A stretch of 64,000 bases of DNA, from assembly GCA_002919195.1 (NCBI GenBank), contig PKEU01000123.1:15003-79002 (forward strand). Reading direction: 5' to 3'. The notes below the pieces were generated by a model, which had not been told where the DNA came from, made no database searches, and saw only the letters and a list, made by a program, of their open reading frames with translations. This DNA is from a bacterium. GTDB taxonomy: Bacteria > Bacillota > Limnochordia > DTU080 > RSA5. Shown here piece after piece: positions 5,616 to 22,265 of this stretch (positions are counted from its first letter, which is position 1; the number at the start of each line of letters is the position of its first letter). The position numbers were made by a program, and so were the translations under genes.

Positions 5616-6998
5616 TTATCCGTTTTGAATCTTTTGTGTGAGCTCCCGCAAGGTTTGTGAGAGCGCGGGATCCGATTGGGCCTCGGCTTTTACCTTTTCG
5701 TAGGCATGGATCACCGTGGAGTGATCGCGCCCGCCAAACTCCTCGCCAATTTGGGGCAGCGACGCATCGGTCAGCTCCCGCGCCAGATACATCGCCACCT
5801 GCCGGGGAAACACCAAAGAGCGCGTCCTTTTTTTTCCTTTCATATCAATGACGCTGACGCCGAAGTGAGCCGCCACCACGGATTGGATCAGCTCGATGGT
5901 GATCACCCGGTTTTGGGTGGCAGAGACGAGGTCGCGCAGCGCCTCTTCCGCCACTTCGGGCGTGAGCGGCAGGTTTTGGAGTGAGGCGTACGCGATGACG
6001 CGGATGAGAGCCCCTTCGAGTTCTCGGATGTTGGACTGCACCAGATTGGCGATGTAAAGATAGGTGTCGTTGGGTAGAGAAATCCCTTCCTCGGCCGCTT
6101 TCTTGCGCAAAATGGCCACCCGCGTCTCTAAGTCAGGCGGTTGAATGTCGGTGGTGAGCCCCCATTCAAAGCGGGAGCGGAGGCGCTCCTCCAGGGTGGG
6201 GATCTCTTTCGGCGGCCGGTCGCTGGAGATCACAATCTGTTTTTCGGCCTCGTACAGCGCGTTAAACGTATGGAAAAACTCTTCCTGCGTCTGCTCTTTC
6301 CCTGCGACAAACTGGATGTCGTCGATCAAGAGAAGGTCGACGTTGCGGTACTTTTGGCGGAATTCCGCCATGGAACGCCTGCCCAGTGCGTTGATGAGGT
6401 CGTTGGTAAAGGTTTCGGACGAGACGTACACGACGTAGAGCTTCGGGTGATGCTCACGCACGTAGTGGGCGATGGCTTGCATCAAGTGCGTCTTGCCTAA
6501 GCCCACGCCCCCGTACAAAAAAAGAGGGTTATACGCGCCCGCAGGATCCTCTGCCACCGCCAGGGCGGCTGCCTGGGCAAATCGGTTGCTGGGACCGACG
6601 ACAAAGGAATCAAAGGTGTACCGCGGATTAAGGGTCCCCCCCGTCACCCTCGGGCCCCGCGGACGATGAGTGGAAGAGGGACCAGAAGAGCTCTGTGCGC
6701 CGTTGGCGTAGTCGAAACCGCCATGGCCGGCATCGGGCTGGCCGTTGTCGGCAGCCGTGATCATCTCGATGGTGGTGATGCCGGGTGCGATCTCCTGGCA
6801 CATGCTCTTGAGATCGGCGAGATGTCGGGCCTCGACCCAATCCCTCTCCCACCGGCTGAGAAAGTAAATCGTGAGCTTGCCAGACTCGAGACGCACGGGG
6901 CGGGCGTTCTCGAGCAGCATGTTTAAGGTCGCGCTGCCCAGCTCATGCTTGGCCCGTTGGACGACGTGGTTCCAAAGCTCATTGAGATCTAACCGCAT
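5616..6998 (-). CDS. dnaA: Chromosomal replication initiator DnaA. The ORF extends to 7196, but the likely start is the ATG at 6998 ([10 protein letters not shown]...).
   Basis: AAA+ Walker [11 protein letters not shown], sensor motifs, and a C-terminal DnaA-box-binding HTH (...[19 protein letters not shown]...). A GGGAGG sequence lies upstream of 6998. The longer ORF would run into the DnaA-box cluster. Confidence 0.95.
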
Positions 6999-7179
6999 GA
7001 TGACGATTGCCTCCCTGCCGCCCCTGCAGGGAAGCGCCTCCTCTTCGCCGGACTTGTCGCGGGCGAGGAACTTGATTCCACGGTCTGAAAAGCAACTCCT
7101 CCCGCGCCTTGATCCGCGCTGTCGACCGTGGGCGCGGAACGCCATCGTTCCGCCGTGGAGCTCCTCACCCTGTTGTGGG

Positions 7180-7475
7180 GTATTCACATAATCCACACGT
7201 TTTCCACAAGCTCTGACCTGGGCGAGGTGGGTCAGATCGCCCCGACATGGGCGTTTTGACCGATGGGCTTTTCCACAGCGCTATCCACACACAAAGGCCC
7301 AGCTCAACGGGGTGTTCCTTTCATTAGCTCACCCCGTCGGATCCACGCTTTGAATGCGGCGAGCGCCGCTTTCACCCTCGTGCCGGCCGCGTCACCCCCT
7401 TAGGTGACTGTGGAAATCTCCTCGGGTGTCATCCCCGGTTCATCCACAGATTTTCCACGGACCTGTCCACAATTC
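7180..7475. promoter_or_regulatory. oriC upstream DnaA-box cluster between dnaA and rpmH
   Basis: At least 8 close matches to TTATCCACA: TAATCCACA 7189-7197, TTTTCCACA 7200-7208, TTTTCCACA 7269-7277, CTATCCACA 7281-7289, ATTTCCACA (rc) 7409-7417, TCATCCACA 7440-7448, TTTTCCACG 7451-7459, CTGTCCACA 7463-7471. Confidence 0.8.
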
Positions 7476-11506: not shown

Positions 11507-13408
11507 ATGGCCGAGCGTTTTGACGTGATCGTCGTCGGCACGGGGCACGCGGGGTCGGAGGCGGCTCTTGCGGCGGCCAGAATGGGGATGAAGACCCTGG
11601 CGTTAACGTTGAGCCGCTACAATTTCGCGACGATGTCGTGCAACCCTTCCATCGGCGGTCCGGCCAAGGGCACGCTGGTCCGCGAGGTCGACGCCCTGGG
11701 CGGCGAGATGGGTCTCAACATCGACCAGACGGCGATCCAGGTGCGCATGCTCAACACCAGCAAGGGGCCGGCGGTGCAGGCCTTGCGCGCCCAGGCGGAT
11801 CGTTTCGCCTACAGCCGGCGGATGCGGTGGGTATTGGAGCACCAACCCAATTTGGAAGTGCGGCAAGCGGTGGTCTCGGACATCCTCGTCAGCGAGGGAC
11901 GGGTGCAGGGTGTCGTCACCGCGGCGGGCGAACGTTATCTCGCTCCGGCCGTCATCTTGACGACGGGCACCTACATGGGCTCCCGGGTCCATATCGGCGA
12001 GGTCAAATTCGAGTCGGGCCCGAGGGGCCAAAAGACCAGCGATCGCCTCTCTCGCTCGCTCCTCGACCATGGATTTTCGATCGTCCGCTTTAAGACGGGA
12101 ACGCCGCCGCGGGTGAAAAGATCCAGCATCGATTACTCCCGCCTCGAACCCCTCGCGGGCGATCCCAACCCTCCCGGCTTTTCCTTTATGACGGGCCGGA
12201 TCCAACGAGAGCAGGCGCTTTGCTGGATCACGTACACCAACCAGCGCACCCACGAGATTATCCATGCCAATCTCCACCGGGCGGCGATGTACAGCGGCGC
12301 GATCACGGGTCCGGGACCCCGTTACTGCCCGTCCATCGAGGCCAAGCTTAAGATGTTTCCCGACAAGGACCGGCACCAGGTGTTTATCGAGCCCGAAGGC
12401 TGGAACTCCCGGGAGATGTATCTGAGCGGCATTTCCACCAGCCTCCCTAAAGAGGTGCAGGAGGAGTTTTTGCGCACGATCCCGGGATTGGAAAACGCCG
12501 AGATCACGCGGTACGGGTACGCAATCGAGTACGACGCGCTTGTCCCCACGCAAATCCAGGCCTCGCTCATGACCAAAGAGGTCGAAGGTCTCTTTACCGC
12601 AGGCCAGATCAATGGGACCACCGGGTACGAGGAAGCGGCAGCGCAAGGGATCATCGCAGGCATCAACGCCGTCCGCTATGTCCGTGGCGAGGAGCCTTTG
12701 ATCCTCGACCGCTCGCAGGCGTATATCGGTGTGCTCATCGACGATTTGGTGACCAAGGGTACCCAAGAGCCCTACCGGATGATGACCAGCCGGGCGGAGT
12801 ACCGGTTGCTGCTCCGCCACGACAACGCGGACAAGCGGCTGACGCCGATCGGGCGTGCCGTGGGTTTGGTGGACGATAAGAGGTACCGGCTGTTTGAGGA
12901 GCGCTGGGCCAAGATCGAGGAAGTGCAAGAGCGTTTGCATGCGGTCCGCGTCGGAGCGACCCCCGAAGTGCAGGAAACGCTGGTGCGGCTCGGCACAGCT
13001 CCCCTTCGCCGTGGGCAGGGGCCTACCTTGGCAGAGCTCCTCAAGCGGCCCGAGATGACCTTTGAAAAGCTGGTGGAGCTCGACAGCCAGCTAGACGCCG
13101 TGCCTCCCGAGGTGCGGGAGCAAGTCGAGATCGAGGTGAAGTACGCGGGGTACATCGCCAAGCAAGAAGAGCAGGTCGAGCGTTTCCGCCGGCTCGAAGC
13201 GAAGCGGATTCCCGAAGGCACCGATTACTGGGCGATTCCCGGCCTGTCCAAGGAGGCGCAGGAGAAGTTGTCGACCATCCGGCCTCGTTCGATCGGGCAA
13301 GCGGCGCGGATCTCGGGTGTCTCCCCGGCCGATGTCTCGGTGCTCTTGGTCTACCTGCACGCTCGTGGAGGGAGGCCGCAGTCCAAGGCGGTCGGCGCCC
13401 ATGTCTGA
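11507..13408 (+). CDS. mnmG: tRNA uridine 5-carboxymethylaminomethyl modification enzyme MnmG (GidA)
   Basis: FAD-binding FDVIVVGTGHAGSEAA. About 630 aa, GidA family. AGGAGG lies 8 nt upstream of the ATG at 11507. Confidence 0.95.
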   Translation: MAERFDVIVVGTGHAGSEAALAAARMGMKTLALTLSRYNFATMSCNPSIGGPAKGTLVREVDALGGEMGLNIDQTAIQVRMLNTSKGPAVQALRAQADRFAYSRRMRWVLEHQPNLEVRQAVVSDILVSEGRVQGVVTAAGERYLAPAVILTTGTYMGSRVHIGEVKFESGPRGQKTSDRLSRSLLDHGFSIVRFKTGTPPRVKRSSIDYSRLEPLAGDPNPPGFSFMTGRIQREQALCWITYTNQRTHEIIHANLHRAAMYSGAITGPGPRYCPSIEAKLKMFPDKDRHQVFIEPEGWNSREMYLSGISTSLPKEVQEEFLRTIPGLENAEITRYGYAIEYDALVPTQIQASLMTKEVEGLFTAGQINGTTGYEEAAAQGIIAGINAVRYVRGEEPLILDRSQAYIGVLIDDLVTKGTQEPYRMMTSRAEYRLLLRHDNADKRLTPIGRAVGLVDDKRYRLFEERWAKIEEVQERLHAVRVGATPEVQETLVRLGTAPLRRGQGPTLAELLKRPEMTFEKLVELDSQLDAVPPEVREQVEIEVKYAGYIAKQEEQVERFRRLEAKRIPEGTDYWAIPGLSKEAQEKLSTIRPRSIGQAARISGVSPADVSVLLVYLHARGGRPQSKAVGAHV

Positions 13409-14168: not shown

Positions 14169-14312
14169 GCTTCCCTTCTTTACTGGTCCTGCCAGAGTTT
14201 TGACCAGCCTGTGATCCCGCGAGCGCTGTGGTACTGGCGATTTTGGAGGAATGGCAAGGCGCACTCTCGAAACCTGGCATCGTCTTGCGCGCATGAAAAG
14301 GGGTGTGAAGGG

Positions 14313-15188
14313 GTGCGCCTAGGGGACATCCTCCGAGCGAAAGCCAAGGGCGACAGCCCTCGCCTTCCCCCGACGGATGATCTGGGGTGGAAAGAGGAAG
14401 TCGTATCGCTTCCCGTCGGAGCGATTGAGCCCAATCCCTACCAGCCGCGACGAGAGTTCGGCGAAGAGCAGCTGCAGGAGTTGGCTGCGTCAATTCAACA
14501 ACATGGGATCCTCCATCCCGTGGTCGTGCGGCCGAAAGAATCGGGTTTTGAATTGGTGGTCGGCGAGCGGAGGCTTCGCGCGTGCCGTCTACTGGGATGG
14601 GAGCGCATCCCTGCCGTGATCCGGGAGCTCTCCGATACAGAAGTGGCTGAGATCGCTCTGATCGAAAACTTGCAGCGTGAAGGTCTCAGCTTTTTTGAGG
14701 AAGCCGAAGGATACAGGCGGCTGCTGGAGGAGTTTGGGCTGACGCAAGAAGAGCTGGCACGCCGACTGGGCAAGAGCCAGTCGGCGGTGGCCAATAAGTT
14801 GCGCTTGCTGCGGTTTGAGCAGCCCGTGCGCGAGGTTATTTCCCGGGAAATGCTGTCAGAGCGGCACGCCCGCGCGCTGCTGAGGTTGGAAAGAGCGGAA
14901 GATCAGCTCCGGGCGCTGGAAGTCATTGTGAAGAGGCAGCTCAATGTGCGAGAGACTGAAAAGCTCGTCGAAAGGATGTTGGCGGAAGGTCCGGAAGCTA
15001 AGGATCAACGGAAGCGTCCATCGATCCGGGGCGTCTATAAGGACTATCGGCTGCTCCGTAATAGTGTCAAGAAGCTGGTGGATCAAATGAATGCCGACGG
15101 TGTGATGGTCGAGTTCGAAGAAGTCGAAGAAGGAACTTTCGTTGAATTACGAATTCGTATTCACCACCAGGATAAAGGAGGCCGCTAG
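14313..15188 (+). CDS. noc: Nucleoid occlusion protein Noc (ParB family). The ORF begins at 14211; GTG at 14313 is a plausible start.
   Basis: Sequence resembles B. subtilis Noc (YyaA) as recalled, e.g. SERHARALLRLERAEDQLRALEVIVKRQLNVRETEKLVERML, in the ParB N-domain, HTH and C-terminus. Sits between rsmG and soj as in Bacillus. A perfect Noc-binding site lies inside the gene. Confidence 0.85.
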   Translation: MRLGDILRAKAKGDSPRLPPTDDLGWKEEVVSLPVGAIEPNPYQPRREFGEEQLQELAASIQQHGILHPVVVRPKESGFELVVGERRLRACRLLGWERIPAVIRELSDTEVAEIALIENLQREGLSFFEEAEGYRRLLEEFGLTQEELARRLGKSQSAVANKLRLLRFEQPVREVISREMLSERHARALLRLERAEDQLRALEVIVKRQLNVRETEKLVERMLAEGPEAKDQRKRPSIRGVYKDYRLLRNSVKKLVDQMNADGVMVEFEEVEEGTFVELRIRIHHQDKGGR

Positions 15189-15191
15189 GAC

Positions 15192-15956
15192 TTGGGACGC
15201 GTCATCGCGATCGTGAATCAAAAGGGTGGCGTGGGTAAGAGCACGACGGCGGTCAACCTGGGGGCCTATCTCGCGTGCGCCGGGAAGCGGGTGCTGGTGG
15301 TCGACATTGACCCGCAAGGCAATGCCACCAGCGGGCTGGGCGTGGAGAAGTCGGAAGTGGAGCATTGCATCTACTCGGTTTTGATCGGCGAACGCGAGAT
15401 CAAAGACGTGGTCCGGTCGACTGCGATCGAGGGTTTGGAGGTTGTGCCGGCGACGATCGCTCTTGCGGGCGCCGAGATCGAGCTGGTGCCGCAAATGTCC
15501 CGGGAGTTTCGCCTCAAGCGGTCTCTCGAACCGGTGGTCGACGACTACGACTTTATCTTGATTGACTCTCCCCCGTCCCTCGGCCTGTTGACGGTCAACG
15601 GGCTCACCGCGGCGCACGGGGTGCTGGTCCCGATCCAGAGCGAGTACTACGCCCTCGAAGGATTGAGCCAGCTGATGAACACCATTGAGATGGTGCGGAC
15701 CCACCTCAATCCCCGGCTGGAAGTCGATGGGGTGGTCATCACGATGTATGACGCCCGCACCAACCTGTCTCAAGCGGTGTTGGAGGATGTGAAATCCTTT
15801 TTCGAAGGCCGTATCCGGGTGTTTGAGACGGTGATTCCACGAAACATCCGGCTGAGTGAAGCGCCGAGTTTTGGCCTGCCCATCGTGCTCTACGATGACC
15901 GTTCCAAAGGAGCGCAAGCGTACCGGGCGCTGGCGGAGGAGGTGCTCGCAGGGTGA
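15192..15956 (+). CDS. soj: Chromosome partitioning ATPase ParA/Soj
   Basis: MGRVIAIVNQKGGVGKSTTAVNLGAYLA deviant Walker A. 254 aa. TTG start 10 nt downstream of AGGAGG. Confidence 0.93.
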   Translation: MGRVIAIVNQKGGVGKSTTAVNLGAYLACAGKRVLVVDIDPQGNATSGLGVEKSEVEHCIYSVLIGEREIKDVVRSTAIEGLEVVPATIALAGAEIELVPQMSREFRLKRSLEPVVDDYDFILIDSPPSLGLLTVNGLTAAHGVLVPIQSEYYALEGLSQLMNTIEMVRTHLNPRLEVDGVVITMYDARTNLSQAVLEDVKSFFEGRIRVFETVIPRNIRLSEAPSFGLPIVLYDDRSKGAQAYRALAEEVLAG

Positions 15957-16810
15957 GCCGGAAAGCTTTGGGCAGGGGTTTGCGCGCGTTGATCCCGGAG
16001 AGCGACGCGTTTGAGGGAGCCGCGGTCCGGGTGATTCCCATCGACCAGATCGACCGCAATCCAGAGCAGCCGCGCAAGCACTTCGATGAGGCACAGCTCG
16101 AGGAGCTGAAAGAGTCGATCTTGGCCCACGGCGTGCTGGAACCGATCATTGTGCGGCCGGTGGAGGGCCGCTATGAAATCGTGGTGGGTGAGCGTCGCTG
16201 GCGGGCGGCGAAGCTAGCGGGCTTGGACGCCATCCCGGCGGCGGTCCGCGAGATGTCGGATCGCGAGGCCATGGAGTTGGCGTTGGTGGAAAACCTCCAG
16301 CGCGAAGACCTCAACCCGATCGAAGAGGCCGAAGCCTACAAGCGGTTGATGGACGAGTTTGGGTTGACGCAAGAAGAAGTCGCGGATCGGGTGGGCAAAA
16401 AGCGTTCGACGGTAGCCAATCGGTTGAGGCTGCTCGAAATGGAGCCGGAGCTGAGGGCTGAGGTATCAGCCGGTCGGCTTTCGGCGGGCCATGCCAAGGC
16501 GCTGCTGGCGATCAGCTCCTCCCGCGAGCGGATGGAAGTCGCGCGCCGCGTGATTGAAGATGGTTGGTCAGTGCGAGCCGTCGAGGAGTATGCGCGCCGG
16601 GCGGGCCGAAAGCCCTCTGCTCCAAATCGCGCGGCAGCGCGGCGAGCGAAGGATCCGTTTCTGCAAGAAATTGAAGAGAGACTGCAGCAATGTTTGGGAA
16701 CAAAGGTGCGCATCGTGGGCCAAGGCCGACGGGGACGCATCGAGATCGACTACTACAGCGAAGAAGACATCGAACGGATCTTAGAAATCATCGTGGGAGA
16801 GCACACCTGA
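15953..16810 (+). CDS. spo0J: Chromosome partitioning protein ParB/Spo0J
   Basis: MSRKALGRGLRALIPE N-terminus, GERRWRAAKLAG box, HTH. 4-nt overlap with soj. Confidence 0.93.
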   Translation: MSRKALGRGLRALIPESDAFEGAAVRVIPIDQIDRNPEQPRKHFDEAQLEELKESILAHGVLEPIIVRPVEGRYEIVVGERRWRAAKLAGLDAIPAAVREMSDREAMELALVENLQREDLNPIEEAEAYKRLMDEFGLTQEEVADRVGKKRSTVANRLRLLEMEPELRAEVSAGRLSAGHAKALLAISSSRERMEVARRVIEDGWSVRAVEEYARRAGRKPSAPNRAAARRAKDPFLQEIEERLQQCLGTKVRIVGQGRRGRIEIDYYSEEDIERILEIIVGEHT

Positions 16811-16834
16811 CCGCCGCCGCATCGCCGAGCCCGG

Positions 16835-18073
16835 TTGTCGGTGGATGTGAGGGCGATGGGTTCGGGAGCGGACATCCGTGTGGAGCTTGGTAGTGGCGCT
16901 GCATGGCTGACGGAGGCGGCGAGACGCATGGAGAGGACTTTCGAGGATGTTTTAAGTATGCTCGGTCCCGGGCAGCGTGTGCGGCTCGAGACGGGCTCGA
17001 CGATTTATAGGGGCCCCTACGAGAGTCACATTCTCGAAGTAGACAGCGGCGGTGTGCGCATCGCCGCTCCGATGGACAATGGAAAACTGGTGCTGATCCC
17101 GGTCGGTACCACCGTGACGGTCACTGCAGATACACCGGTCGGGAGCGTCACCTTTGAAACGGCGATCGTGGACCGTACCGCGGGTCGAAATCGCTCTTTG
17201 CTCCTGGCTTCGCCCCCTGCCCCGGGCGCCGAGGAAGTCGCACCACCCCGGGATGTGCCGATCATCGCGGTGGGAAGCGGCAAGGGCGGCGTCGGCAAGA
17301 CGACTCTGGTGGTCAATTTGGGCATCGCGCTGTGCCGGCTGGGAAAGAGAGTGTGTGTGATCGACGGCGACCTTGGCACGGCCAACGTGGACGTCATCAT
17401 CAACGTGGGAAGCCGCTATAACCTCTCACACGTCGTGAGCGGCGAACGGCATATGTTGGAGGTGGTCGTCGAAGGTCCCGAGGGTCTGATCGTGCTTCCG
17501 GGCGGCTCAGGGTTGCAAGAACTGACCATGCTGGACGAGCGGAAGTTCTCCATGATCCTGAGCCAGTTCCGGGAGCTCGAAGAATACGCCGACATCATTT
17601 TGGTGGACACCGGCAGTGGACTCTCCCCCAGTGTGACAAACTTCCTCATGGCTGCGTCGCAGTCCATTCTCATCACCACCCCGGAGCCTCACGCAATTAC
17701 CGACTGCTACGCTCTGATCAAGGTGCTCGCGACCAAGGGATATACCGAACCGCTGCGATTGGTGGTTAACCGCGTCGAATCGGACGTTGAGGCGGCCGAC
17801 ATCAGTCGCAAGATGACCTTCGCGAGCCGGCGATTTCTCAATACCCAGCTGGACGTGCTGGGATCGATCGCCGAAGATCCCGCGGTCGCCCGGTCGATTC
17901 GACGTCAGGAACCGCTGATGCTGAGTGAACCCCGCTCCCGGGCGGCTGCGCAGGTGCAGACGATCGCCCAGCGGTTGGTCGGAGGCGAGGAAGCGCCTCA
18001 TAAGGCCGGCGGCACCTTGGGCTTTTTCCAACGCGTGCGCCGGTTAATCCCCGGCTGGGAAGGGCGAGCATAA
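16835..18073 (+). CDS. MinD/ParA-family deviant-Walker-A ATPase with an about 140-aa N-terminal PilZ-reminiscent domain and a C-terminal amphipathic tail. Start is uncertain (TTG 16835, GTG 16841/16847, ATG 16856).
   Basis: Central AVGSGKGGVGKTTLVVNLGIAL...DGDLGTANVD is MinD/FlhG-type. N-terminus carries RRMER (RxxxR) and EVDSGGVRI motifs. C-terminal ...GTLGFFQRVRRLIPGW resembles the MinD membrane-targeting helix. Begins 25 nt after spo0J, probably in the same operon. Confidence 0.6.
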   Translation: MSVDVRAMGSGADIRVELGSGAAWLTEAARRMERTFEDVLSMLGPGQRVRLETGSTIYRGPYESHILEVDSGGVRIAAPMDNGKLVLIPVGTTVTVTADTPVGSVTFETAIVDRTAGRNRSLLLASPPAPGAEEVAPPRDVPIIAVGSGKGGVGKTTLVVNLGIALCRLGKRVCVIDGDLGTANVDVIINVGSRYNLSHVVSGERHMLEVVVEGPEGLIVLPGGSGLQELTMLDERKFSMILSQFRELEEYADIILVDTGSGLSPSVTNFLMAASQSILITTPEPHAITDCYALIKVLATKGYTEPLRLVVNRVESDVEAADISRKMTFASRRFLNTQLDVLGSIAEDPAVARSIRRQEPLMLSEPRSRAAAQVQTIAQRLVGGEEAPHKAGGTLGFFQRVRRLIPGWEGRA

Positions 18074-18143
18074 CAGCTCCGAAGGCGTCTGACGACCACG
18101 AGGGCGCGCAGGTTTAGAGATATTCGGTGCAGCGCATGCGATG

Positions 18144-18159
18144 TGTTCCACGTGGAACA
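18144..18159. other. parS site 1: TGTTCCACGTGGAACA, a perfect 16-bp palindrome
   Basis: One mismatch from the B. subtilis parS TGTTCCACGTGAAACA (position 12, A to G), which makes this the fully symmetrised version. Identical 16-mer recurs at 18670 and 19841. Confidence 0.8.
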
Positions 18160-18669
18160 AGGAATCGGCGATCACGGTGTGACCATGAATCTCCCCACCG
18201 CTGTCCCCTTCTCGCGTTGTATCCGCAATCCCCCTTCCCCAGCGTGCTGCAGTGAGGGCGAAGATGGCTCATTACGAGTTCCCAACAAGCCGCGAGCGAC
18301 AAGGGAGCGATCAGCGGATTCAGGGGGCGGGGTTCAAAAGCGGTGCAGGCTTGAAGTGGTCAGGATGACGATGAGATGACGCCGTGGGCGCGCCGGCCTG
18401 AGTGTGTTCGGTACCGGTGAGACGCTGTGCGGGAAAGCGCCCGCTGGGGACGGCATGCGCGCTGTGCGCTCCCCCGATAGCACGGCGGCGGAATTTGGCC
18501 GGAAAGGATCGAGTCGCGAGCTACGGGGTTTTGGACAGTGGCTTCGCGCAGGACCTTACGAAGCCAATGCCCGTCTTACGAGCGGGAGCCGAAGGGATTG
18601 GCACGTGAGTGAGCGAGAACCCGACGGTCAACGGCCGGGGACCCTACGGCATGTGAGACTCCGCCCCAC

Positions 18670-18685
18670 TGTTCCACGTGGAACA
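18670..18685. other. parS site 2: TGTTCCACGTGGAACA
   Basis: Identical 16-mer, 526 bp after site 1, in the gene-free stretch. Confidence 0.8.
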
Positions 18686-19840
18686 ACGGCCGAGACGATA
18701 GACCGTCTCCTCCAGAGGATCCTGCCGGTGGAGAGACGATGTGGCCTTCCCCAACGGACGGGCCGCGCACGCAACAAGGATTGCAAACCGCCGAGGGCGA
18801 CGTGCCGCCCGCGACCGAGCGCCTGTGCCACGGTGCTGATGGGTACACCTTTTCACTCCTCGACGGATGACGAGGCTTCGACATACCGGGTGGTCTTTCG
18901 CCTTCTATTCCATGAGGGGTGACAGCGTCGAGGCGCTGGACGGCTCAACCCCCCTGTCCCGCTCGCATCCTGGAGGAAGTTCCTACAGCCCACTGGCCGA
19001 AAATTCCGGGCAACGCGCCGGGCGGCAGGCCTGCGCGGTTGTGAGCCGATATGTGGGGGCGCGACCGAACGTGTCGCACACGAGCGCACCTCGGTCGGCT
19101 CCACACTCTTGGAAGCTCCACCTCGAACTGAGAGAGACACCTTTACAATGTCGCCTCCTTATACCCTCCTGTTCCACTCAAGTGCCGAGGACCTTGGGAT
19201 GGTGTACTTGATGGTCTCGGTCGCCCTCGCAGGGTGATCGGCGATCTCGACGTGCGTCGGACACATCCGACACGCCGGGCGTCCCCGCTGGCTCCGCAGC
19301 GGCCGGTTGCGGGTCCACGCTGGCTCCTCACGTGCACGGCGGGTACTTCGTCACCGGCTTCCGATCGCGATGCTAGCGGGTACGTTTGCGAGCGCGTTTG
19401 CAATGCCGCGTGCGTGCCCACATGCGAAATCACTTACGATTGTGACTGTCCTTCCCCGTACGATGGGGAATGCGTTTAGGCTTCTGATCATGCCATCGTA
19501 GTCGCAAGTGTATCAAATTCCCTCTTCGCCATTCCTTGGAACAGCGCATGAGAAAGGGCCTTCGAGCGCTCCTTGCGACGCAATGAGACCTAGAGGCCAC
19601 CTCACTGGCAAGGTTTCGGACTGCCTGCACGCCCGATGCATCTAGTCTCCAAATGTTCCGAGCGAAAAGCGGTTGCAGACGGGTGTCGAGATGCGCCGGC
19701 GTCCTGACTAGCCGCCTTCCATTGCCTCGATACAAGGGAAGACGCTGCCGTGCACCATACAGCACTGCTCGTCCCTCGATCATCGTCCTACGTGCGCCTC
19801 AGGCCAACAACTCGGCCCGGCTGCAAGGGGATCCTTCCAG

Positions 19841-19856
19841 TGTTCCACGTGGAACA
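19841..19856. other. parS site 3: TGTTCCACGTGGAACA
   Basis: Identical 16-mer, 1171 bp after site 2. Confidence 0.8.
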
Positions 19857-20523
19857 TGAAGCATCGTCCCAAGCGCGAAGAAAGCGTTGTCTGGCACAAC
19901 CGGAAAAAGCACAAAGACGCCAAGCTCCGGACGGCTAAGCCCGAGGCGAAATATCGAAGCACAGTGGCTCCCACTATAGCGCAGGTTGATCGAGCGCGGG
20001 AGGTCCATGAGACGAAATAGCCTCTTAGTGTGACAGACGTGGGCTGTGGCGCAACAATCGGAGGGGGACGCGCGACCCATAGCTCGCACACGCACGAACC
20101 CAAGAGAGCTCCAATAGTTCGTGGTTCAAGAGAGCTCGGAGTTCAAACGCAGCTCGCGGTCTGATGCCCCCTTTTAGAAAGTGCGACGAATTGGATGGCT
20201 CCGTGGGGGGAAATTTATCACCTCAGGCTTCAATCAGCCCAGCCAGGCAACGAGACCACGGGCACACGTGCTATCTCGCCTCCTCACGGGAAGAAGCCCA
20301 GCGCGCGAGCGAGACGGTAAGCACCGTCAACTCGACCGACACGAAAGGACGAACACCCGTTCCCTCCGAGAGGGACGCAGTTTGGCCCCGTCCCATCAGT
20401 CCCGTCACTAAGAGGATCGCGCGAAAAATGACGAAGTTATTCAGGCGAGTCAAGAGGAGCCGGGGACTTTTGTGAAGGACCTTCGGCAAATCCATTTAAA
20501 GGACCACGAGTATTTCCCGGCAA

Positions 20524-21672
20524 ATGCTCCGTCGTCGCGCCATGGGGGTCGGGGGAGATGAGGCGTCTCTGCCTTCGTTGGGTGAGAGGCGTCATCTGCT
20601 GAGGAGGAGGCCCCCATTGCCATCGACGTTCGAGAAGATACGGACCATTTTAGCCGCACTCCGCAACGGCCAGTTCACCCTGATGTTTGTGCCCGATATG
20701 CTGCATCGACCCCGGACATGGCGGATGCCTCTGCGGCGGCTTTACATCGCGAGCGGTGCCGCCCTGGCAGTGCTATCGTTAGCGATGGCAGCCTTCGTCT
20801 GGGCTGGCGCCGCAACCTTGACCATCGCCAACACCCGGCAGGCGCTGGAATTACTCTCCGAAGAGAATCGCCGGCTGGAGTCAATCACCCATCAGCAACA
20901 GGCCAAACTCCTGGAAATGGCTCGCGAGGCGGCGATGCTCGCGGAGCGCGTGACGGAGTTGGAACTACTCGCCAACGAGATCCGAGACCTTGTGCTTCTT
21001 GTGGCTCAAGACGACTCCGTCGCGTCCGGCCAACTCTCAAGCGCCACAGCGCATTCACATTTGGAAACCGCCATGGAGAGATCGATAGACACATCGCGCA
21101 TCGGGAGTTTCCAGACGGCTGATCGGCTTCCCGCAAGCGGCGTCGGTGGAGGGGAGCTCTACCCCTACGACTTGAGTGCGCAGCTCCGCGGAAGCCTGAC
21201 CGCCCTTCGTTGGGCGGTGGAGAGCCAAAGTGATCGCTTGGCCGCCCTCAAAACCTCCGCAGAGGCCTATCAACACAAGATGAGGCACACGCCCAACGCC
21301 TGGCCGGTCACCGGCAGAGTAACCTCCGAATACGGCCGGCGCCGCCATCCCACGAGGGGTGTGTACCAACATCATGCCGGCATCGATATCGCCGTGCCGC
21401 TGGGCACACCCGTGCTCGCCACCGCCGCCGGAAAGGTGGTCCACGCGGGACCCAACGGCGGGTACGGGCTCACCGTGGTGATCGACCATGGCTACGGCCT
21501 TCGGACCCTGTACGCCCACAATGCGCGGGTGCTCGTCCAGCCAGGGGATCGAGTCGAACGGGGCGATGTCATCGCCCTTGCGGGCAGCACTGGTGTGAGT
21601 ACCGGGCCGCACGTTCACTACGAGGTCCATGTCGACGGCCGTCCTGTCAATCCCAGGGAGTTTCTACCCTGA
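20524..21672 (+). CDS. Membrane-anchored M23 (LytM-type) peptidoglycan endopeptidase with a coiled-coil region (LmdC/EnvC-like architecture). Start is uncertain.
   Basis: Cytoplasmic N-tail, TM (LYIASGAALAVLSLAMAAFVW), coiled coil (LELLSEENRRLESITHQQQAKLLEMAREAAMLAERVTELELLANEIRDL), and a C-terminal M23 domain with HAGIDIA...HVHYEV metal ligands. Confidence 0.85.
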   Translation: MLRRRAMGVGGDEASLPSLGERRHLLRRRPPLPSTFEKIRTILAALRNGQFTLMFVPDMLHRPRTWRMPLRRLYIASGAALAVLSLAMAAFVWAGAATLTIANTRQALELLSEENRRLESITHQQQAKLLEMAREAAMLAERVTELELLANEIRDLVLLVAQDDSVASGQLSSATAHSHLETAMERSIDTSRIGSFQTADRLPASGVGGGELYPYDLSAQLRGSLTALRWAVESQSDRLAALKTSAEAYQHKMRHTPNAWPVTGRVTSEYGRRRHPTRGVYQHHAGIDIAVPLGTPVLATAAGKVVHAGPNGGYGLTVVIDHGYGLRTLYAHNARVLVQPGDRVERGDVIALAGSTGVSTGPHVHYEVHVDGRPVNPREFLP

Positions 21673-21677
21673 CGCCG

Positions 21678-22265
21678 ATGCCGTGTCGACCCGGGGGGCT
21701 CCTCAAGCAACCCGAAGGAGTGGCTTTCTTGCTCTGGATACGGAAGATTTGGCCGTGGAAGACGCGCCGGATCGCGCGGCGCGACGCAGAAGAGATTGTC
21801 ATCCGTATGGATGAAGTCTATGAAGGCGCCCTCCGCGCGACCGGCGTGCTGCGCATCGAGGGAAAGGTGCGCGGGACTATCGACGCAAAAGGCGACGTCA
21901 TCATCGGTGAGAACGCGCTCGTCTGGGCCGACGTCTCCGCGGTCAACCTGATCGTCGCCGGTGAACTCCACGGAAAAGTGGACATCCCTGGCCGCCTGCA
22001 CATCCTTCCAGGGGGGAAATTTTCCGGTGACGCCCGCGTGGGCGTCTTTGTAGCCGAAGACGGCGCGGCCTTTTGCGGTGATTGCACAGTGGAGGTGCGA
22101 CGACCGGGCCAACGCTCCGAGCACATCACCCGCAGGATCGAGACGACCGCTCCCGCCGCGACGACCGGACAACGGGCGGGCGAGCCTGTTGGGACGCCGG
22201 ACTCTTACCAGGCAATTCGGCCGTCTCCAGGAGGAAGCCAAGATCTCCCATGTAATTTGATATAA
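21678..22265 (+). CDS. Bactofilin (DUF583 beta-helical polymer-forming protein). N-terminal extent is uncertain.
   Basis: Core LRIEGKVRGTIDAKGDVIIGENALVWADVSAVNLIVAGELHGKVDIPGRLHILPGGKFSGDARVG is a classical bactofilin repeat, followed by a Pro/Gly-rich tail. Confidence 0.8.
   Translation: MPCRPGGLLKQPEGVAFLLWIRKIWPWKTRRIARRDAEEIVIRMDEVYEGALRATGVLRIEGKVRGTIDAKGDVIIGENALVWADVSAVNLIVAGELHGKVDIPGRLHILPGGKFSGDARVGVFVAEDGAAFCGDCTVEVRRPGQRSEHITRRIETTAPAATTGQRAGEPVGTPDSYQAIRPSPGGSQDLPCNLI

Follow-up and report, generated by a model that had tools for sequence, protein, structure and literature searches.

Bacterial genomes normally carry from 1 to about 23 parS sites, located near parAB or the replication origin, and it is still an open question why these sites cluster and what sets their number (reviewed in PMC7333895). 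In P. aeruginosa, the perfect palindromes of the species are parS2 and parS3 (PMC4368675), and both have the 16-bp sequence that is the subject of this study. Gel shifts (EMSA) have shown ParB binding to the M. xanthus consensus TGTTCCACGTGGAACG (PMC3899335, PMC3778016), and biophysical work on ParB has employed the B. subtilis parS, TGTTCCACGTGAAACA. Concerning the paralogous proteins, four residues decide between parS-binding ParB and Noc, which binds the Noc-binding site (NBS): R173 and G201 are invariant in ParB, and Noc has Q173, K179, K184, and R201 at the four positions (Jalal et al. 2020, PMC7383237).

Here, we describe a bacterial locus in which the 16-mer TGTTCCACGTGGAACA occurs three times in a long gene-free stretch. 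The whole stretch of DNA that was analysed, 64 kb in length, is called the window, and all positions refer to it unless a related locus is named. We give a probability of roughly 0.9 to the reading that the three 16-mers are chromosomal parS sites, that is, predicted loading sites for the Spo0J/ParB protein encoded 1.3–3 kb upstream. As the 16-mer is already known as a ParB site in other phyla, the non-routine point is its conserved gene-free setting.

Results

Gene order in the origin region

The window is a replication-origin region with a layout of the Bacillota type. Assignment with Pfam and NCBIfam gave the gene order dnaA, DnaA boxes, yidC, jag, mnmE, mnmG, rsmG, noc, soj, spo0J, and a gene for a PilZN-MinD-like ATPase, and the series rnpA-yidC-jag-mnmEG-rsmG is present. 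Upstream of dnaA (Pfam; 5616–7196, minus strand) lies a cluster of five DnaA-box-like 9-mers (7189–7448), which is the probable oriC, and the cumulative GC skew has its minimum near 5–6 kb. The three sites are 10.7–12.6 kb from the DnaA-box cluster, and with dnaA and the DnaA boxes at 5.6–7.4 kb they occupy the origin-proximal position that is characteristic of chromosomal parS.

The preliminary description had placed the sites directly downstream of the parAB operon. They do lie downstream of the cluster, but a fourth gene intervenes after parB, which encodes the PilZN-MinD/ParA-like ATPase (412 aa; 16835–18073, plus strand; Pfam PilZNR and CbiA/AAA_31/ParA) and is the last gene before the sites. 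The true start of this ATPase is probably the Met codon at 16928, since its relatives are 371–391 aa long. It is encoded downstream of spo0J in all Limnochordia-like loci, and a literature search for PilZN-MinD fusions found nothing relevant. Beyond the gene-free stretch, the order continues with an M23 peptidase gene (20524–21672), a bactofilin gene (21678–22265), and then sugar-metabolism genes.

Three exact copies of the 16-mer

A motif scan of the 64 kb window found exact TGTTCCACGTGGAACA at 18144–18159 (site 1, 71 bp past the stop codon of the ATPase gene), 18670–18685 (site 2), and 19841–19856 (site 3), the three positions named in the preliminary description, and no further copy with three or fewer mismatches. 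That three exact copies are not due to chance, as had been claimed, agrees with the dinucleotide-preserving shuffles, which gave a mean of 0.18 matches at three or fewer mismatches and reached three matches in 0 of 100 cases. The description of the 16-mer as a symmetrised B. subtilis parS was also accurate, since its half-asymmetric form is TGTTCCACGTGAAACA, the very B. subtilis parS of the biophysical work. The term "dedicated multi-site array" is right in that the three sites are clustered, but as a name for three sites it is generous.

The three sites fit the 16-bp inverted-repeat patterns tGTTNCACGTGNAACa and TGTTNCACGTGNAACA, the latter exactly, and the 16-mer agrees with the M. xanthus consensus TGTTCCACGTGGAACG in 15 of 16 positions, differing at base 16 only. 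Between sites 2 and 3, an isolated half-site, TGTTCCAC, is found at 19170–19177 on the plus strand; it is not conserved in the closest related locus (L006, described below), and it may be either a decayed site or a chance occurrence.

The flanks of the three 16-mers are unrelated beyond 1–4 bases; the copies are therefore independent of each other and do not belong to a longer repeat. A dispersed repeat or the terminal repeat of a mobile element was rejected on the same grounds, together with the lack of another copy in the 64 kb and of any plasmid match. Likewise, the reading of the 16-mers as intrinsic terminators or hairpins was rejected, since no terminator-like site was found in 17800–20800 and no T run follows any of the three. 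An assembly artefact is ruled out by an independent metagenome contig (L005), which is 99.8% identical over 16278–18338 and includes site 1.

The predicted reader of the sites

Two ParB-family proteins are encoded upstream of the sites. The one predicted to read them, ParB/Spo0J (ParB2; 15953–16810, plus strand), has the Pfam domains ParB_N, HTH_ParB, and ParB_C, and its features include an N-terminal LGRGL motif, a GERRWRA CTP box, a helix-turn-helix, and a C-terminal dimerisation domain. In Caulobacter numbering it reads GKKR(173)...N-R...E...SAG(201)-HAK and thus has R and G where specificity for parS is set. Among solved structures, the closest to it are M. xanthus ParB (the most similar), Thermus Spo0J, and Caulobacter ParB, and its score of 243 is under the NCBIfam Noc cut-off of 315. 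As is usual for chromosomal parS systems, a ParA/Soj partner is encoded together with this ParB (15192–15956, plus strand; Pfam AAA_31/CbiA/ParA; deviant Walker A KGGVGKST), and its gene overlaps the start of parB.

The other protein (ParB1; 14211–15188, plus strand, start codon uncertain) is a Noc paralogue of ParB. It scores 322.6 against the cut-off of 315 for NCBIfam TIGR04285, reads GKSQ...N-K...R...SE-R-HAR, that is, the Noc-type combination Q/K/R/R, and has Noc structures as its best solved relatives. The GERRxRA CTP box is found in both proteins.

It could be argued that the palindromes are operators of a protein other than ParB/Spo0J, either the Noc paralogue or a transcription factor recognising a CACGTG core, given that the operon encodes two ParB-family proteins and that CACGTG-centred palindromes generally serve other regulators as well. 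We consider this reading extremely improbable. The Noc paralogue has the Q/K/R/R residues of NBS binding and appears to have sites of its own: the exact NBS consensus ATTTCCCGGGAAAT at 14838–14851, inside noc, belonging to a separate system, and the NBS-like ATTTCCCGGCAAAT with one mismatch at 20512–20525, which overlaps the start codon of the M23 peptidase gene and is exact in the related loci L006, L001, and L009. The three 16-mers do not match the NBS palindrome tATTTCCCGGGAAATa, which has A at base 2 and C at base 7, and instead carry the parS-specific bases G2 and A7. Moreover, the match to known ParB sites extends over all 16 positions and not just over the CACGTG core, and the related locus L020, which is without noc and NBS, still keeps two 16-mers. 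The Noc paralogue is therefore probably not the reader of parS. To judge from the residues and bases, each paralogue would match one type of site cleanly, and such a pairing assigns the 16-mer to Spo0J.

Site number and gap length in related loci

Genomes, metagenomes, and assemblies served as sources of related loci, each of about 21 kb (10 kb flanks) and encoding a homologue of the PilZN-MinD-like ATPase, and motif copies were counted with one mismatch or none unless noted. The closest public genomes are MAGs labelled Limnochordia or "Clostridia". In 9 related loci (ATPase 48–99% identical; G+C 55–67%), between 1 and 6 motif copies were found at the equivalent place. L006 (ATPase 99% identical in amino acids, 88% in nucleotides) has 3 copies in a gap of 2,432 bp, L007/L016 (81%) have 3 in 2,210 bp, L017/L018 (78%) have 5–6 in 2,190 bp, one of those in L017 with two mismatches, and L001/L009 (73%) have 2 in 1,170 bp. 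More distantly, L002 (62%) has one exact copy and one with a single mismatch in 3,182 bp, and L019 (58%) has 4 copies in 2,066 bp and a further one-mismatch site 7.5 kb away (18929). L020 (55%) carries 2 copies 57 bp apart, and L021 (48%) carries 1 copy just upstream of the ATPase gene; neither has a gap. Over the 64 kb of the window and about 21 kb per relative, all motif copies except that at 18929 in L019 fall in the array, that is, in the gap or, in L020/L021, beside the ATPase gene.

Thus, all relatives with an identity of 58% or more have a gene-free gap of 1,170–3,182 bp, which is missing from the outgroups L020 and L021; these also carry fewer sites. The gaps of the relatives show no codon-phase signal. 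A 245-aa "hypothetical" gene called in the L016 gap was counted as non-coding, because codon-phase signal is absent from it and a parS site falls within it. The genes past the gap vary by lineage and include M23/bactofilin, a Cys/Met PLP enzyme, an FAA hydrolase, and, in L002, IS66 fragments.

Conservation confined to the sites

The comparison with L006 separates the sites from their surroundings. The flanking genes are 81–88% identical in nucleotides. In the central gap (18251–20340), identity falls to 56% over aligned columns and to 44% when gap columns are counted, but all 48 bases of the three sites are unchanged. Each site is thus retained 16/16 in L006, site 2 amid DNA that is about 56% identical, and site 1 is also present in L005. 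At the background identity, the chance of retaining 48/48 bases would be about 1e-12 if bases are independent, a rough figure because the alignment is optimised. The sites are therefore conserved and the neighbouring non-coding DNA is not, as is characteristic of chromosomal parS.

Comparison among the gaps gave the same picture. Between gaps, blastn matched nothing except parS and the NBS palindrome that precedes the M23 gene, and the 9- to 12-mers common to at least four of the seven gaps were pieces of parS only, apart from one trivial G-rich 9-mer. On these alignments, the phylogenetic footprint singles out the 16-mers alone, and the pattern of retention is taken to show purifying selection on the three sites. 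Motif, cognate proteins, origin position, and conservation in relatives all support the earlier interpretation of the sites as parS.

Content of the gene-free stretch

No non-coding interval of the 64 kb window is longer than the spacer holding the three sites (18074–20523; 2,450 bp). The second longest, of about 0.7 kb, is the DnaA-box region, and the other large "gaps" of the crude gene map are either missed genes or this same region. The earlier statement that the sites lie in a gene-free stretch was confirmed by several tests for coding, which are given below.

Gene-free DNA of 2.45 kb is highly unusual in bacteria, and this could mean that the gap hides an unrecognised gene, a pseudogene, or a non-coding RNA, with the palindromes forming part of it as hairpins or as ends of a repeat element. 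Some conservation with L006 outside the sites, namely, a 16-nt run at 18231–18246 and blocks within 20350–20450, might be cited in favour. Nevertheless, we regard this explanation as very unlikely. The codon-phase G+C spread is 0.03–0.10 in the gap versus 0.15–0.48 in the flanking genes, and no ORF in 18074–20523 has a noteworthy positive codon-usage score. No Pfam domain was found in the gap in six frames with stops masked, nor in its three longest ORFs; no Rfam family was found at the gathering score in the whole window or at E≤1 in the gap; and no tRNA or tmRNA was found in the gap. Pseudogene remnants were also rejected, as tblastn with 16 proteins encoded beside the gap in relatives matched parS-encoded peptides only. 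A mobile-element origin of the gap was rejected, as blastn in distant mode gave no match between the gap and plasmids. In addition, only parS is common to the seven gaps, and the three sites do not resemble one another in their flanks. The blocks within 20350–20450 have the appearance of a regulatory region of the M23 gene, which they closely precede; the last ~180 bp of the gap are the conserved upstream region of this gene.

Apart from parS, the central gap (about 18251–20340) would seem to be under no detectable constraint, and the DNA that separates the sites seems for the most part to be unconstrained spacer.

Discussion

This study provides several lines of evidence that the three 16-mers of the window are probably chromosomal parS sites read by the neighbouring Spo0J. 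Based on established ParB biology (review PMC7333895), the following course of events can be proposed for these sites. As in other members of the ParB family, ParB dimers would recognise each palindrome via the helix-turn-helix, and the ParB on parS would use its GERRxRA box to bind CTP and, as a closed clamp, slide onto the flanking DNA. With the sites 0.5 and 1.2 kb apart, the clamps could form one continuous ParB-coated zone over the gap and its flanks, on which Soj/ParA would act and at which SMC would be loaded, about 11–12 kb from oriC. For the present locus, we infer binding, spreading, ParA interaction, and SMC loading by analogy with the systems in which they were established.

As parS sites, the three 16-mers add little to present knowledge, since 1 to ~23 origin-proximal sites are normal and the 16-mer is a textbook ParB site. 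Their setting is unusual: it is gene-free, it has lost homology outside parS and the two ends, and it is many times longer than ordinary bacterial intergenic DNA. The description of this setting as an unconstrained spacer is the weakest part of the explanation that we prefer. Bacterial genomes show the usual deletion bias, and under such a bias a truly neutral spacer is not predicted to be kept as a gap of 1.2–3.2 kb in every relative with at least 58% identity.

An alternative that accepts the sites as parS is that the gene-free stretch is itself selected, as a transcription-free "regional centromere" platform and not as neutral filler, so that its length and the site spacing would influence how ParB clamps accumulate, how SMC is loaded, or how the adjacent PilZN-MinD-like ATPase interacts with it. 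A long non-coding gap of 1,170–3,182 bp comes after the ATPase gene in each of the seven loci with at least 58% identity, its sequence turns over almost completely, and the site spacing is alike in the window (526/1171) and L006 (523/1107). The gap contains no terminator-like site and only two promoter-like matches, both weak, and the outgroups without a gap, L020 and L021, have just 2 and 1 sites. Nonetheless, we consider such selection rather unlikely. The gap length varies nearly three-fold, and site number and spacing differ between lineages. Furthermore, parS sites elsewhere work inside genes, as in B. subtilis spo0J. The differing genes beyond the gap, with IS66 fragments in L002, would also fit a different origin, in which the gap may be a rearrangement-prone spot that gathers decaying DNA.

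A more specific proposal along the lines of a selected platform is that the centromere of a Limnochordia-like sub-clade is a transcription-free island of 2–3 kb, kept for its length and a few perfect parS sites while its sequence drifts, and that it perhaps works with the PilZN-MinD/ParA-like ATPase, whose gene is fixed directly upstream in this clade alone. This proposal is doubtful, and we rate it slightly below the general idea of a selected stretch; if true, the gene desert would be a platform that selection has retained for ParB/SMC loading, and not junk DNA.

Returning to the preferred reading of chromosomal parS sites in a spacer, the locus offers a tidy natural example for the question of parS clustering, as the array ranges from 1 to 6 sites among close relatives, always within a long gene-free spacer in which any base outside parS appears able to change. 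In addition, the presence of a Noc/NBS pair beside a Spo0J/parS pair in an uncultured high-G+C member of the Bacillota could help to date the split between ParB and Noc.

Comparison with known systems

The closest likeness in the sites themselves is to P. aeruginosa, which has the identical 16-bp perfect palindrome and several near-identical sites (parS1–4) near oriC and parAB. The host phylum differs, however, and the sites of the present locus lie in one long gene-free stretch. P. aeruginosa also has six degenerate sites elsewhere besides its four origin-proximal ones, whereas the 64 kb window holds no additional copy even at three mismatches.

In M. xanthus, as in the present locus, a multi-site array is found only a few kb from parAB, and the par locus has a bactofilin gene nearby. 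The M. xanthus array comprises 22–24 sites in about 3 kb near parAB, in contrast to 3 sites at a far lower density here, and it is situated 4 kb upstream of the operon, whereas the present array is downstream. The bactofilin genes are also differently arranged: parAB is co-transcribed with the bactofilin gene bacM in M. xanthus, whereas here bactofilin is paired with the M23 peptidase, and in the relatives L017 and L019 the bactofilin gene is not adjacent to the gap, unlike the M. xanthus-like proximity seen in the window.

In gene order, the locus resembles B. subtilis, where rsmG-noc-soj-spo0J likewise stand beside the origin and both site types, parS and ATTTCCCGGGAAAT, occur. The operon-proximal parS of B. 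subtilis is inside the spo0J coding sequence and its other sites are dispersed over the origin-proximal region. By contrast, spo0J carries no site in the present locus, where all sites are intergenic and perfectly symmetric, and spo0J is followed by the extra gene for the PilZN-MinD-like ATPase, beyond which the three predicted parS sites are found.

Noc System and Probable Replication Origin

The sequence data indicate that the Limnochordia-like lineage represented by the window possesses a Noc/NBS system. The loci considered were the window itself (14211-15188, 14838-14851, and 20512-20525) and those of the relatives L001, L002, L007, L009, L016, L017, L019, and L021, which carry homologues of the PilZN-MinD-like ATPase. 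ParB paralogue 1 (14211-15188) scored above the NCBIfam cut-off for Noc, and its specificity residues are Q/K/R/R. At 14838-14851, within the reading frame of noc, lies an exact Noc-binding site (NBS), ATTTCCCGGGAAAT, whose bases specify the residues I-S-R-E-M of the protein's DNA-recognition region. This intragenic NBS was exact in all noc-bearing relatives examined, over a G+C range of 55-67%, and the outgroup locus L020 was found to be devoid of both noc and the NBS.

The probable oriC of the window is the 260-bp segment at 7189-7448, directly upstream of dnaA, in which five DnaA-box-like 9-mers, each with one mismatch to TTATCCACA, were identified. Among the non-coding intervals of the window, the one that holds this cluster is the second longest.

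PilZN-ATPase Gene and parS-Containing Gap

The product of the gene at 16835-18073 (probable start at 16928) joins a PilZN domain, similar to the YcgR N-terminus, to a MinD/ParA-type ATPase; some sources label this protein FlhG. The position of the gene between spo0J, directly upstream, and the parS array is fixed in all Limnochordia-like loci. The homologues in more remote Clostridia/Bacillota (L022-L024) are standalone genes, adjoining neither par nor flagellar genes.

The largest parS array among the relatives was observed in L017/L018 (11452-12940), with five to six sites within 1.5 kb. Since most of these sites depart from the palindrome at the outermost bases only (positions 1 or 16), the comparison suggests that the constraint on parS falls on the inner 14 bp. 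We also observed, about 70 bp past parS site 1 of the window, a 16-nt run, CCCCTTCCCCAGCGTG (18231-18246), identical in the relative L006; apart from parS, no other exact run of that length is shared with L006 over the initial 2.2 kb of the gene-free gap.

The gap of L016 contains an annotated 245-aa "hypothetical protein" (12331-13068, minus strand) that includes a parS site. Pfam gave no match for this gene, and its G+C content showed no codon-phase signal; the public annotation probably made a spurious call here. At the distal edge of the 3.2 kb gap of L002, broken ORFs of an IS66-family transposase were found (14341-15560), hinting that insertions and rearrangements readily occur in the region past the parS array.

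M23 Peptidase-Bactofilin Pair

Immediately past the parS gap of the window lies an M23 peptidase and bactofilin gene pair (20524-22265), which also adjoins the gap in L006, L001, and L016/L007, and does not in L017, L019, and L002. A block 5' of the peptidase gene (20398-20450) is near-identical in L006; as its core, AAGGAT-N-GC...GACGAA-TTA, is retained in L001 and L016, the block is probably a promoter or regulatory region of the pair. Further, an NBS-like palindrome at 20512-20525 (stretch 20508-20527), exact in L006, L001, and L009, overlaps the start codon of the peptidase gene and suggests Noc binding there. Concerning known systems, the bactofilin gene bacM of M. xanthus is co-transcribed with parAB.
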